NCBI GenBank assembly: GCA_035258845.1
Contig: DATFWX010000130.1
Span: 17,497 to 81,496 of the forward strand
DNA from: Polyangia bacterium
GTDB lineage: Bacteria; Myxococcota_A; Polyangia; JAHFDS01; DATFWX01
Length of the DNA: 64,000 nucleotides
Reading direction: 5' to 3'
The first letter of the stretch is position 1. The number at the start of each line of letters is the position of its first letter. Below, piece after piece: positions 56,500-61,646 of this stretch. The translations under genes and the position numbers were made by a program. The notes under the pieces were generated by a model. That model was not told where the DNA came from. It did not search any database and saw only the letters and a list, made by a program, of their open reading frames with translations.

Positions 56500-59400
56500 A
56501 TGCCGGGCTCCTGGGATCAGACTGTCCTCGTGGTCGACGATGATGCGCCCACGCTGGCCTTTTTGCGCCAGCAGTTCGAGTCGCGCTACCAGATGCTGTG
56601 CGTCGAGTCGGCCGAGCGCGCGCTCGAGATCCTGCGCACGCAGCCGGTCGACGTGCTCCTGACCGACCAGCGCCTGCCCGGCCTCAGCGGCCTCGAGCTG
56701 GTGACGCGGGCGCGCGAGCACCAGCCCGATCTGGTCGCGATCGTGCTGTCGGCCTACGCCGAGCCCGAGGATCTGCTGGCCGCGATCAACGAGGGCCGCG
56801 TATATCGGTACGTGCGCAAGCCGGCTCACCCGGCCGAGCTGGCCATGACCATCCACAACGGCCTCGAGGCGGCCGGCCTGCGCAAAGAGCGCGACTCGCT
56901 GCTCGAAAGGCTGCAGCGGCGCCTCGATGCGCTCTCGATCCTGTACGAGGTGTCGGCGGAGGCGGCGGCTCCGCGCAGCTACGCGCAGCTGGTCGACACG
57001 CTGACCCGCGCGCTCAACCGGGTGGTGCGCTTCGACGTCGCGGCCTCGCTGATCGCCAAGGACGTCTCGCGCGCCGCCATGCACGTGCACGCGCCCTCCG
57101 CGTGCGACGAGGACACGCTGCTCTACGTGCGCGACCGGACCGTCGAGCTCCTGTCCACGCTGACCGGCCAGGAGGTCGGGGAGGCCGACCTCCTGCTCGA
57201 CATCACGGGCGAGCGGGTGCAGGAAGGCCCGGTCGCCGCACCGCGCAAGCTGCTCTCGTCCACGCACATTCCGCTGGTGGTGGACGCGCGCGTGGTCGGG
57301 GTCATCTATCTGGCCGCGTTCCGCGAGTACGCCTTCTCGCCCGACGACGAAAAGCTGCTCTACGTTCTGGCCAACCAGACCTCGGAGGCCGTGCGGCGCC
57401 TGGAGACGCGCATCCTCGAGGAGCGCCGCAAGATGGCTCTTATGGTCGAGTCGATGGCCGACGGCGTCATCATGACCGACGAATCGGGCGAGGTGTGCCT
57501 GTGCAACCCGGCCGCGCGGCGCATGCTCGACATCGAGCCCCACATCGCGGTCACGACCAAGTACCTCAAGGAGCGCCTGGGCTTCTATCCGTTCGATCTG
57601 GTGCGCGGGCAGGCCGCCAAGAGCGCGGGCGAGGCCGCGCTGTACGTGCGCGAGGAGGTCCGCATCGCCGGCAAGGTTCTGCACTCGATCGTCTCGCCGG
57701 TGCGCTCGGGCGAGGGCACGGTGGGCGTGGTGGTGGTGCTGCGCGACATCACCGAGCGCACCGAGCTCGAGCAGCGCAAAGAGGAGTTCATCAGCATCGT
57801 CTCGCACGAGCTGCGTACGCCCCTGACCTCGATCACGGGCGCGCTCGACATCGTGCTCAACAACTACCCGCAGGCGGTGGGCGAGAAGCCGCGCCGCTAC
57901 GTGCAGATGGCGCGCGAAGGCTGCGCCCGTCTGGGCGCCATCGTCGATGATCTGCTCGACGTGGCCAAGTTCGAGCGCGGCAAGGTGCCTCTGCGGCCGG
58001 CCCCGCTGTCGTTCGATGCGCTGGCGCACGACGCGGTCGAAAAATTCCGCCCGGCCGCCGAGGCCAAGCACATCGCGCTCGAGCTCAAGGTCGCCCAGCA
58101 AAGCCTGCGCATGGTGGCCGATGGCGACCGACTGACCCAGGTCTTGAACAACCTGCTCTCGAACGCGCTCAAGTTCACGCCCGAGGGCGGGCGCGTGGAG
58201 GTGGAGGTGTTCGGCCCGCAAGCCGCCAGCACGCACGTGGGGCTTTCGATCTGGAACAACGGCGAGCCCATCCCCGAGGACTCGCACGAGCGCGTCTTCG
58301 ACAAATTCGAGACCGCCCAGAAGAGCCCGTCGCGGCGCGTGGGCGGTACCGGTCTGGGCCTGGCCATCTCGCGCGGCATCGTGGAAGCCCACGGCGGCCG
58401 CATCTGGGTGGAGCCTTCGCCCGAGGGCGCGCGCTTCGTGGTGATTCTCCCGGTCTCGCCGCCCGAGGAAACCACGCCCGCCGGGAGTGGCGGCAGCGCT
58501 CCCACCCAGGGTGCGCATCTGGCCCTCGTGGTGTCGGATCGATCGCACATGGCCTACCTGCTCAAGGGCCTGCTTTCGTCGAGCGGCCGGCGCGTACACA
58601 TCGCTCAGGCGGCCGACGATGGCCTCGCGTTCGCGCGCGAGAAGCGGCCCGAGCTGATCGTGCTCGACATGGAGCTTCAGGGCGGCGTCGCGGTGGCGCT
58701 CAGCGAGATCCTCAAGCACGACCCCGAAACCAAGAGCGTCCCGCTGCTCGCGATCGGCACTCGGCGGCTGCTCGACCGCACGCCCACGCGCCAGCCCGAC
58801 GGCGCGCTGCACACGCCGCTCGACGGCGAAACCTTCGTGGCCTACTGCGAGAAGCTGACCGCCGAGCGCGGGACCGAAGCACCCGCGCGCATCCTGGTGT
58901 GCGACGACGATCCGCACATCCGCGTGATCTGCCGCGAGGTGCTGGAGCGGGCCGGCTATCAGGTCGAGGAGGCTCCCGACGGACAGGCCGCGCTGGAGGC
59001 AATCGCGCGCGCGCTGCCCGACCTCCTGGTCCTCGATGTCATGATGCCCGAGCTCGATGGCTATCAGGTGCTCAGACGGCTCAAGTCCGAGCAGGCGACC
59101 GCCGAGTTGCCGGTCATCTTCCTGTCCGCGCGCGGGCAGACCGCCGACAAGGTGCGCGCGTTCAAAATTGGCGCCGAGGATTATCTGGTCAAGCCCTTCG
59201 ATCATCCCGAGCTGGTCATGCGGGTGGCCAAGGCACTCGAGCGGCGCGCGCGCGAAGCATCGGCGTCGCCGACCACACGCCTGCCCGGCTCGGCGGTCAT
59301 CGAATCCGAGACCGACAAGCGCCTGGCCGCGCGCGGCGACTTCGCGTTCGTCTACGTCGACCTCGACAATCTGAAGTCGTTCAACGACTACTACGGTTAC

Positions 59401-60533: not shown

Positions 60534-61646
60534 TCAGGTCAGGACGCGGCGTTTCACATGATACCGCTCGGTGTCGTAGAAGCGTGACACGTCGACCAGG
60601 TTGAGCGCGCGCACCGCGTCGGCCAGCGCAACCAGCGAGATCTCGCACGCGGGCGCGATGCCGCGCGCTGACACCATGGTGCCGAATGCTCCCCTGAGCG
60701 CCGCCTCCACGGCGGCGGTGCCGAACAGATGACCCATCAGGCGATCGGTGGTCGAGGGCGGCCCGCCCCGCTGCGGGTGACCCAGCGCAACCGCACGCGC
60801 GTCCCAGTGCGTGTCGCGCCGGATGCGCTCGGCCAGCCAGGCGCCCACGCCGCCCAGGCGCGCGTGGCCGAAGTCGTCGATCTTGGTCTCGACCGTGATG
60901 AGGTCGCTGCCGGCCGGCGTGGCGCCCTCGGCCACCACCACCACCGCGTAGCGCGGGTGGCGCCGATCCTTCTGGCCTTGCGACAGCCTTTCGTCGATGA
61001 GCCGGTACAGGTGTGCGAGCGAGAACGGATGCTCGGGGATCAGGATGGCATACGCGCCCCCGGCCAGGCCCGACCAGAGCGCGAGATGGCCCGCGTGCCG
61101 GCCCATCACCTCCACGATCTGCACCCAGTGATGCGAGCCCGCGGGCGTGCGCGAGCGCTCGATGATGTCGGCGCACGTGCGCAGCGAGGTATCGAACCCG
61201 AGCGTGTAGTCGGTCGCGCCCAGATCCTTGTCAATGGTCTTGGGGATGCCGATGAGGGGCGCGCCCAGCGCCGCCAGCTTGGCGGCCACGCCCAAGGTAT
61301 CCTCGCCCCCAATCGGAACCAGCGCGTCGAGCTGCAGCCGCTCGCGCAGGTTGCGAAGCACCTCGGCCGAGCGATCCACGGGCGCCCCCGGGCTGGCGCC
61401 GCTGGCCTTGAATGGGTTGGTGCGCGAGCTGCCCAGGTTGGTCCCGCCGTCGCGGTCCCAGGTCCGCACCACGAACGGATCGAGCGGGCACACCTCGTGC
61501 ACGCATTCGTCGAGCAGGCCCTGCCAGCCGTCGTAGATGCCGACTGCTTCGAGGCCGGCCTCGGCCGCCCGCAGCACGACCGCGCGGATGGCCGGGTTCA
61601 GCCCGGGCGCGTCGCCGCCTCCCGTCAGCACACCGATTCGCTTCAT
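60534..61646 (-). CDS. pfkA: 6-phosphofructokinase
   Basis: MKRIGVLTGGGDAPGLN, GGEDT, MGR motifs. AAGGAGAG RBS. Confidence 0.9.
   Translation of the reverse strand: MKRIGVLTGGGDAPGLNPAIRAVVLRAAEAGLEAVGIYDGWQGLLDECVHEVCPLDPFVVRTWDRDGGTNLGSSRTNPFKASGASPGAPVDRSAEVLRNLRERLQLDALVPIGGEDTLGVAAKLAALGAPLIGIPKTIDKDLGATDYTLGFDTSLRTCADIIERSRTPAGSHHWVQIVEVMGRHAGHLALWSGLAGGAYAILIPEHPFSLAHLYRLIDERLSQGQKDRRHPRYAVVVVAEGATPAGSDLITVETKIDDFGHARLGGVGAWLAERIRRDTHWDARAVALGHPQRGGPPSTTDRLMGHLFGTAAVEAALRGAFGTMVSARGIAPACEISLVALADAVRALNLVDVSRFYDTERYHVKRRVLT

Follow-up and report, generated by a model that had tools for sequence, protein, structure and literature searches.

To our knowledge, all bacterial H-NOX proteins characterised to date signal through a kinase, an enzyme of cyclic di-GMP (c-di-GMP) metabolism or a fused chemoreceptor, and every stand-alone H-NOX that has been studied acts by a ligand- or oxidation-driven shift between its two subdomains, through which a bound partner protein is made more or less active. 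The subject of this report is an H-NOX gene (hnox) located in a stretch of 64,000 nucleotides, called here the window (contig DATFWX010000130.1 of a Polyangia bacterium, positions 17,497 to 81,496), where it lies directly behind a phosphofructokinase (PFK) gene, pfk, and is convergent with the gene of a hybrid histidine kinase. An earlier note on this DNA had regarded the gene as co-transcribed with pfk and had linked it to the kinase. The reading that we prefer, with a probability of roughly 0.55, is that the gene encodes a stand-alone H-NOX of the Shewanella/Vibrio type, with a putative three-cysteine zinc site, which is fixed behind pfk, is served by its own promoter, and has the kinase as an incidental neighbour.

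A survey of 598 H-NOX sequences described the proximal histidine as 'absolutely conserved', and the three-cysteine zinc site of the Vibrio (Vc) protein, whose fourth ligand is His or Gln, has been identified as a haem-independent redox switch (PMC7108781). A large, separate group of H-NOX proteins without this histidine also exists, and its P. denitrificans member does not bind haem or zinc (PMC8738867, PMC11536421). In published networks of hnox neighbourhoods, fumarase, serine dehydratase and nitroreductase families appear in some groups, and PFK is absent (PMC8738867). Finally, PMC2887360 reports that in M. xanthus the gene pkn4, located beside pfk, encodes a regulator of PFK, and that this pair is syntenic in seven myxobacteria.

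Identity of the H-NOX protein

The minus-strand open reading frame (ORF) 59902..60519 matches the HNOB family of Pfam (PF07700) with 96.3 bits and an E-value of 2.4e-27, for a cut-off of 25.5 bits, the match extending over residues 19-169 of the ORF and positions 2-160 of the 163 in the profile; residue numbers given throughout are those of this longest ORF, of 205 aa. Searched against the PDB, the profile of the clade to which the protein belongs recovers Shewanella (So) H-NOX (4u9b, 1.6e-16) and Tt H-NOX (1u4h, 2.3e-16), and in the alignment with the So protein His114 falls on the proximal His103, while Cys150, Cys175 and Cys183 fall on the zinc ligands Cys139, Cys164 and Cys172. From His114 to Tyr143, the first residue of the Y143-R-S145-Q-R147 (YxSxR) motif, there are 29 positions, the same as between H102 and Y131 of Tt H-NOX, and the spacing quoted in the earlier note is thus correct. 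An AlphaFold (AF2) model of the protein has a predicted local distance difference test score (pLDDT) of 86.6 and a predicted template modelling score of 0.81, and superposes on 4u9b with a template modelling (TM) score of 0.81-0.85; in a Foldseek search of the PDB with this model, the top 47 structures were all H-NOX or sGC beta H-NOX domains, an sGC alpha chain following at rank 48. By profile, fold and motifs, the gene encodes a genuine member of the H-NOX family, and the profile search and the structure prediction that had been proposed as checks of this assignment both sustain it. The G+C content at third codon positions (GC3) of 0.85-0.92 across the kinase, H-NOX and pfk genes indicates real coding character, and horizontal transfer as the origin of hnox is ruled out by its GC3 of 0.85, which lies inside the local range.

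Residue mapping onto the Tt protein shows that the proximal proline (P115 in Tt) is conserved in the window H-NOX. In Tt H-NOX, Tyr140 and Asn74 form the hydrogen-bond network that holds O2, and these positions correspond to Leu and Ala in the window protein, i.e. to a non-polar distal pocket. Haem is probably bound, through the retained His114; if so, NO rather than O2 should be the ligand, since both polar residues of the O2 network are replaced.

The clade of the window protein, as judged from sequence databases, is a very rare one, from uncultured Polyangia/Haliangiales. When 1.84 billion representative sequences were searched exhaustively with a profile, 2111 H-NOX-like proteins emerged. 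Among these the clade is reduced to a single cluster at 50% identity, which scores 315 bits, and some fragments, whereas the relatives next in rank reach only 133 bits at ~35% identity. In a word-indexed search of 5.8 billion clusters, full-length members were found in only 16, all of them metagenomic, and JGI sample 3300047160 is the source of many. A search with two near-invariant peptide motifs detected no member among 185,579 GTDB species representatives, tblastn with the H-NOX sequence gave no matches in 80 PFK loci, including those of the four closest Polyangia/Haliangiales metagenome-assembled genomes (MAGs), and a scan of metagenome contigs yielded 3 loci only, one identical to the window. 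Because the nearest PFKs in the GTDB collection (71-73% identity) come from Haliangiales and Polyangia MAGs, and the source records of the kinase relatives label these as Kofleriaceae, Polyangia or Myxococcales, the host is an uncultured Polyangia/Haliangiales myxobacterium, which agrees with the myxobacterial origin suggested in the earlier note. A literature search provided no description of H-NOX proteins in myxobacteria, the single paper retrieved doing no more than naming both.

A conserved position behind phosphofructokinase

A PFK gene lies directly upstream of hnox, on the same strand, in 8 verified contexts (the window, P0010, P0006, P0014, L082 (P0002), L083, L084 (P0003) and L085 (P0008)), while two more (P0007 and P0005), in which the upstream same-strand gene is truncated, are compatible with this order, and no exception was encountered. 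The placement of hnox behind pfk, already remarked upon for the window, is thus retained across the clade. The longer order spoU-macro-asd-pfk-hnox, where asd encodes aspartate-semialdehyde dehydrogenase, is also present in the P0010, P0006 and P0014 contigs and in L083. The downstream side is variable: hnox is followed by the convergent hybrid kinase in the window, by a same-strand Peptidase_S51 gene in P0010, by a different same-strand gene in P0014, by a gene on the same strand that Pfam does not recognise in L084, and by convergent genes in P0005 and P0006; the P0007 and P0010 contigs likewise carry convergent genes after hnox. A comparison of these convergent genes with the kinase hits, by length and contig size, yielded no match. 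These comparisons point to PFK as the sole conserved neighbour of hnox in the clade. Outside it, the nearest outgroup protein, P0019 (~35% identity, proximal His kept), has a nitroreductase gene upstream and a SelB gene convergent with its own (L088, 1796-4784). No kinase or GGDEF gene adjoins it there either, so this part of the family may often occur in non-signalling contexts.

The phosphofructokinase assignment made in the earlier note is firmly supported by Pfam (Table 1), and it is the type of enzyme that calls for caution. The best NCBIfam model, PFK_mixed (mixed ATP/pyrophosphate (PPi) subfamily), reaches 348 bits and falls below its cut-off of 430.55 bits, and NF002872 (ATP-dependent 6-phosphofructokinase subfamily) passes its own cut-off. 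The window enzyme carries GGED for the GGDG and PKTID for the PGTID of B. subtilis PFK (E. coli positions 104 and 124), substitutions that we take to be a signature of PPi-dependent PFKs, and the name 'pfkA', which denotes the ATP-dependent enzyme, may be wrong. In the closest relatives that lack H-NOX, the Haliangiales MAG L001 (2518-4056 and 4178-5278) and the Deltaproteobacteria MAG L003 (4501-5943 and 6001-7098), two tandem PFK genes follow asd, in the slot where the window has a single PFK and then hnox; in L003, there is in addition a gene for an FHA/sigma-54 activator just downstream, as well as one for a Ser/Thr kinase.

The distance between pfk and hnox depends on the start codon chosen for the latter. 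The GTG at 60519 is merely the first start of the longest ORF, and the HNOB profile begins only at residue 19; 14 full-length homologues measure 166-198 aa, most of them 176-191, and most start at xHG[VL]LLVAY; and the in-frame sequence upstream of the TTG at 60471 displays no conservation among orthologous loci. Moreover, in a five-way alignment of pfk-hnox spacers (window, L082, L083, L084 and L085) conservation is limited to a T.TG.TA...T element, a stretch of GGGG and the [T/G]TG-CAC-GG start, the remainder having diverged in both sequence and length. These observations place the true start at TTG 60471, leaving a protein of 189 aa and a gap of 62 nt to pfk (45-115 nt among relatives). The 205-aa ORF described previously therefore exists as an ORF, with its actual start lying further downstream, and the 14-nt gap to pfk reported with it was an artefact of choosing the longest frame. 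Co-transcription with pfk had been deduced from that short gap, and it loses this basis in a 62-nt spacer that contains a conserved promoter-like element.

The element in question matches an extended -10 pattern for which the 64-kb window, with both strands counted, has only 3 occurrences, including that in the pfk-hnox spacer. Since the rest of the spacer has diverged, the element is under selection, and hnox probably has its own promoter at this site. Neither in the pfk-hnox spacer nor in the convergent spacer between hnox and the kinase, whose 54 bp had been correctly reported, was a terminator-like site or an unusually stable fold detected (z = +0.99 in each case); in the former, where no terminator was seen, read-through from pfk into hnox is possible.

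Table 1. Coordinates of the features discussed, as positions in the window
Feature	Position	Strand	Basis or remark
Hybrid histidine kinase, 1115 aa	56500..59847	plus	Pfam: REC-GAF-PAS-HisKA-HATPase-REC-REC-GGDEF-like
AGDDF motif	kinase aa 999-1003, nt 59494-59508	plus	
Convergent kinase/hnox stop-codon spacer, 54 bp	59848..59901	.	ORF coordinates
H-NOX gene	59902..60471	minus	TTG start 60471, 189 aa, stop codon 59902-59904
C-terminal tail EVQQTLLPR, then basic stretch	59932..59958	minus	Clade alignment; beyond last strand of fold
Candidate zinc-site cysteines of H-NOX	Cys150, Cys175, Cys183		
Y143/S145/R147 (YxSxR)	60093-60079	minus	
Proximal His114	codon 60180-60178	minus	
pfk-hnox spacer, 62 nt	60472..60533	minus	Five-spacer alignment
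GGGGG Shine-Dalgarno	60481-60477	minus	GGGG invariant across 5 orthologous spacers
Extended -10-like element TGTGCTACGAT	60503-60493	minus	TGnTAnnnT match, 21 nt ahead of start codon
6-phosphofructokinase, 370 aa	60534..61646	minus	PF00365, E 1e-83
Aspartate-semialdehyde dehydrogenase (asd)	61668..62750	minus	Pfam; upstream of pfk in conserved block

A proposed mode of action

The scheme that follows is our inference as to whether haem and zinc are bound, which ligand is selected, whether the promoter functions and how the protein acts. A cytoplasmic, stand-alone H-NOX would be transcribed from the extended -10 promoter of the pfk-hnox spacer. By analogy with the family, the binding of NO would break the bond between the haem iron and His114, or oxidants could generate disulfides at the putative zinc site of Cys150, Cys175 and Cys183, in addition to or instead of NO sensing. 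Either trigger would then rotate the distal relative to the proximal subdomain, again as expected from the family, and alter the activity of a bound partner that would be encoded outside any hnox operon. An unlinked signalling enzyme is a reasonable candidate for this partner, at somewhat less than even odds; the adjacent kinase and PFK itself are both unlikely ones. The remaining genes of the window are housekeeping genes, and no NO-metabolism or c-di-GMP genes that could serve as alternative partners were found among them.

A number of observations weigh against the reading of hnox as an independently transcribed, stand-alone sensor fixed behind pfk. In terms of the zinc site, the fourth ligand of So H-NOX is His161 (Gln in other homologues), and this position is a Glu in the window protein. 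In terms of the promoter, no -35 is recognisable near the -10 element, a sigma-70 scan gave no full promoter, and the element is known only as a consensus match from comparative alignment. The pfk-hnox order could be plain inherited synteny of a shallow clade, whose PFKs are 79-85% identical and in which the whole spoU-macro-asd-pfk block is conserved as well. Lastly, a kinase bearing a GGDEF-like domain would be expected beside an H-NOX gene by chance in only a few percent of cases, an estimate that takes account of the density of two-component genes in myxobacteria, and hnox has convergent genes behind it in P0005 and P0006 as well, so that a link to the kinase keeps some probability.

Loss of the haem ligand and retention of the cysteines

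The proximal His column of the clade alignment holds His in 9 of 15 members and Gln, Gly or Ala in the other 6, and the fragment P0016 also lacks this residue. On the clustering tree the members with a replacement lie dispersed, and P0002, the nearest relative of the window protein, carries Gln; this distribution implies that the histidine was lost independently at least three times within the clade; the outgroup H-NOX proteins retain it. Cys150, Cys175 and Cys183 are, by comparison, invariant in the clade and in its outgroups, and Ser145, His163 and the motif HYQTPVR are invariant or nearly so in the clade. The clade is intermediate in kind, with zinc-site cysteines throughout and the proximal His present or absent among members that occupy the same genomic slot, and its conserved function may be independent of the Fe-His bond.

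These data evoke the question of whether the H-NOX fold operates in this clade without haem ligation, either as a zinc/thiol redox switch or as a scaffold held permanently in an activated-like state, in which case the window protein would not primarily be an NO sensor. Besides the repeated loss of the histidine, its retention in the outgroups and the invariance of the three cysteines and His163, such a function is made plausible by haem-free Vc H-NOX, which switches through cysteine oxidation at its zinc site (PMC7108781), and by the P. denitrificans protein, which lacks the proximal His, binds neither haem nor zinc, and still has a phenotype (PMC11536421). The window protein itself, however, retains His114, YxSxR and the conserved proline; YxSxR, which holds the haem propionates, is kept in 5 of the 6 members without His, which argues that haem is still bound; and the position of the fourth zinc ligand (So His161) is Glu or Gln across the clade, not His. 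On balance, we consider a haem-free function of the window protein doubtful, and the stand-alone sensor with haem bound at His114 and a putative zinc site remains the preferred reading.

The convergent hybrid kinase

The kinase gene was described in the earlier note with the length, domain order and AGDDF motif that are listed in Table 1, all of which hold: Pfam identifies three REC stretches, GAF, PAS, HisKA, HATPase_c and a partial GGDEF domain. The match of the latter to PF00990 scores 45.7 bits and covers only profile positions 6-108 of 161; AGDDF stands where the GG[D/E]EF active-site motif would be expected, and the I-site RxxD is replaced by NPSD (GxPGD in most homologues). The REC-REC-GGDEF-like half of the protein has at least 930 homologues, most of them ~795 aa in length and without the REC-GAF that the window protein has at its N-terminus. 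Among the matches listed, which come from Kofleriaceae/Polyangia, AGDDF and the half-site DLDNLKxFNDYYGYAKA[ND] (aa 954-971) are both invariant in 120/120 homologues. This invariance marks AGDDF as a conserved variant, not a product of decay, and a decayed cyclase site is ruled out; the domain looks like an uncharacterised conserved variant of GGDEF, and the conservation of both AGDDF and the half-site suggests that it has kept some activity, or a capacity to bind, that awaits characterisation. No description of an AGDDF variant of GGDEF was retrieved by a literature search. Two further ORFs adjoin or overlap the kinase gene: one of 294 aa (55541-56425, plus strand), in which a single-cluster 4Fe-4S ferredoxin domain (Fer4_13) is fused to a metallo-beta-lactamase fold and whose end is 75 nt upstream from the start of the kinase on the same strand, and an antisense shadow ORF (56485-59832, minus strand), of exactly 1115 aa, which is a high-GC artefact that could mislead automated annotation.

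The proximity of this gene has suggested that H-NOX could be co-transcribed with pfk and serve as the sensor of the kinase, in the manner of a HnoX/HnoK pair, NO-bound H-NOX inhibiting autophosphorylation and thereby controlling the multi-receiver relay and the AGDDF output. The kinase is only 54 bp away and combines both known classes of partner, kinase and GGDEF-like, no terminator separates pfk from hnox, and convergent genes follow hnox in P0005 and P0006 too. The convergent orientation, however, precludes an operon, which also bears out the statement that hnox lies outside any kinase or GGDEF/EAL operon, and the gene immediately downstream is a different one in P0010, P0014 and L084. The closest relative of the kinase (L087, 80% identity) is followed by an unrelated small gene and three further relatives (55-61% identity) reside in other, co-directional operons, none of the four with an adjoining H-NOX, while in L001 a 68%-identical homologue is convergent with pfk at a distance of ~5 kb, and the interval contains no H-NOX. 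The kinase family, in addition, numbers at least 930 members as compared to some 16 H-NOX clusters, and the 62-nt gap with its promoter-like element takes the place of the 14 nt on which co-transcription was founded. No conserved module of hnox and partner, of the HnoX-HnoK or H-NOX-HaCE kind, is therefore seen. The kinase belongs to this part of the chromosome whether or not hnox is there; that the two genes adjoin is for that reason poor evidence of a partnership, and in the window it is most likely an incidental neighbour. The functional link between the two proteins that had been proposed is accordingly one that we consider unlikely.

Phosphofructokinase as a potential target

PFK is the only conserved neighbour, and the downstream side of hnox was rearranged several times while the gene stayed with pfk. 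This could be accounted for if H-NOX bound PFK and regulated it directly, tuning glycolytic flux in response to NO or oxidants with no two-component or c-di-GMP intermediary. The docking could involve the C-terminal tail EVQQTLLPR, which is specific to the clade and lies outside the fold: in the clade alignment V189, Q191, T192, P195 and R196 are invariant and E188, Q190, L193 and L194 at least 90% conserved, the tail is absent from the outgroup proteins, and the pLDDT of the model drops over it to 70, then 48. These features make it a candidate partner-docking motif. In myxobacteria there is also a precedent for a gene next to pfk whose product regulates PFK (PMC2887360, citing Nariya and Inouye 2002).

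Several considerations argue in the opposite direction. We know of no H-NOX that directly regulates a metabolic enzyme, and a search of the literature gave no paper linking H-NOX with phosphofructokinase. The synteny is perhaps simply inherited in a shallow clade: at least 2 rearrangements took place, all on the downstream side, and the probability of this occurring by chance is estimated at ~0.25. Furthermore, no clade-specific feature of PFK was identified. Direct regulation of PFK is therefore improbable, and the stand-alone sensor is preferred here too.

Other genes of the window

A single ORF of ~3740 aa, consisting largely of TPR repeats, occupies 40590-51812 on the minus strand, and is followed by genes for a PEGA-domain protein (39925-40662) and a methyltransferase. 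Another minus-strand gene (6863-9793) encodes a protein of ~976 aa that joins a Ser/Thr protein kinase domain to a C-terminal FGE-sulfatase (formylglycine-generating enzyme-like) domain.

Implications

The clade is unusual in three ways, namely the glycolytic enzyme as its neighbour, the invariant zinc-site cysteines, and the repeated loss of the haem histidine. It could hence offer a natural test case both for haem-independent (redox) functions of H-NOX in vivo and for H-NOX targets beyond signalling enzymes. If regulation of PFK were to prove true, a haem/zinc sensor of gas and redox state would be tied straight to glycolytic flux, and orthologues with and without the proximal His, located in the same slot, would constitute a series in which haem-dependent and haem-independent signalling could be separated. 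At present these findings have a limited reach, since the clade is tiny, its hosts are uncultured soil bacteria and the evidence comes from sequence alone.

Comparison with known systems

The So and Vc HnoX proteins are the described systems that the window H-NOX resembles in fold, proximal His, YxSxR, conserved proline, the positions of the three cysteines and the non-polar pocket, and all are stand-alone proteins of ~185 aa. The window protein is only 20-23% identical to them, however, and its gene, unlike hnoX of the hnoX-hnoK pairs, is not part of a kinase operon, its conserved neighbour being pfk. It also differs in having Glu as the potential fourth zinc ligand, where the So and Vc proteins have His or Gln, and in its additional, invariant C-terminal tail. 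With regard to the proximal histidine, which varies among the closest relatives of the window protein, the clade departs from the 'absolutely conserved' state of the 598 surveyed sequences (PMC7108781). The likeness to redox sensing by Vc H-NOX resides in the three cysteines, invariant in the clade and its outgroups, although the zinc site is putative here and the redox output of the Vc protein is an operonic kinase, HnoK, unlike the situation of the window gene.

A precedent for the natural loss of a haem ligand with retention of function exists in the group 5 H-NOX of P. denitrificans (PMC8738867, PMC11536421). That group has Pro at the position of the histidine, no conserved cysteines and a neighbouring diguanylate cyclase, whereas in the window clade the loss is partial (6/15), the cysteines do not vary, and the histidine is retained in the window protein. 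The pfk-pkn4 operon of M. xanthus resembles the window in that another gene is placed directly beside pfk; that gene encodes a Ser/Thr kinase with a proven relationship to PFK, while the neighbour in the window is an H-NOX whose link to PFK is conjectural. As for the hybrid kinase, one analogue is SgmT of M. xanthus, likewise a hybrid kinase of the Myxococcota that ends in a non-canonical GGDEF-type domain without GG[DE]EF. The two would differ in that the window kinase lacks the I-site RxxD, having NPSD instead, and in the AGDDF motif and DLDNLKxFNDYYGYAKA[ND] half-site that it shares with all 120 listed homologues.

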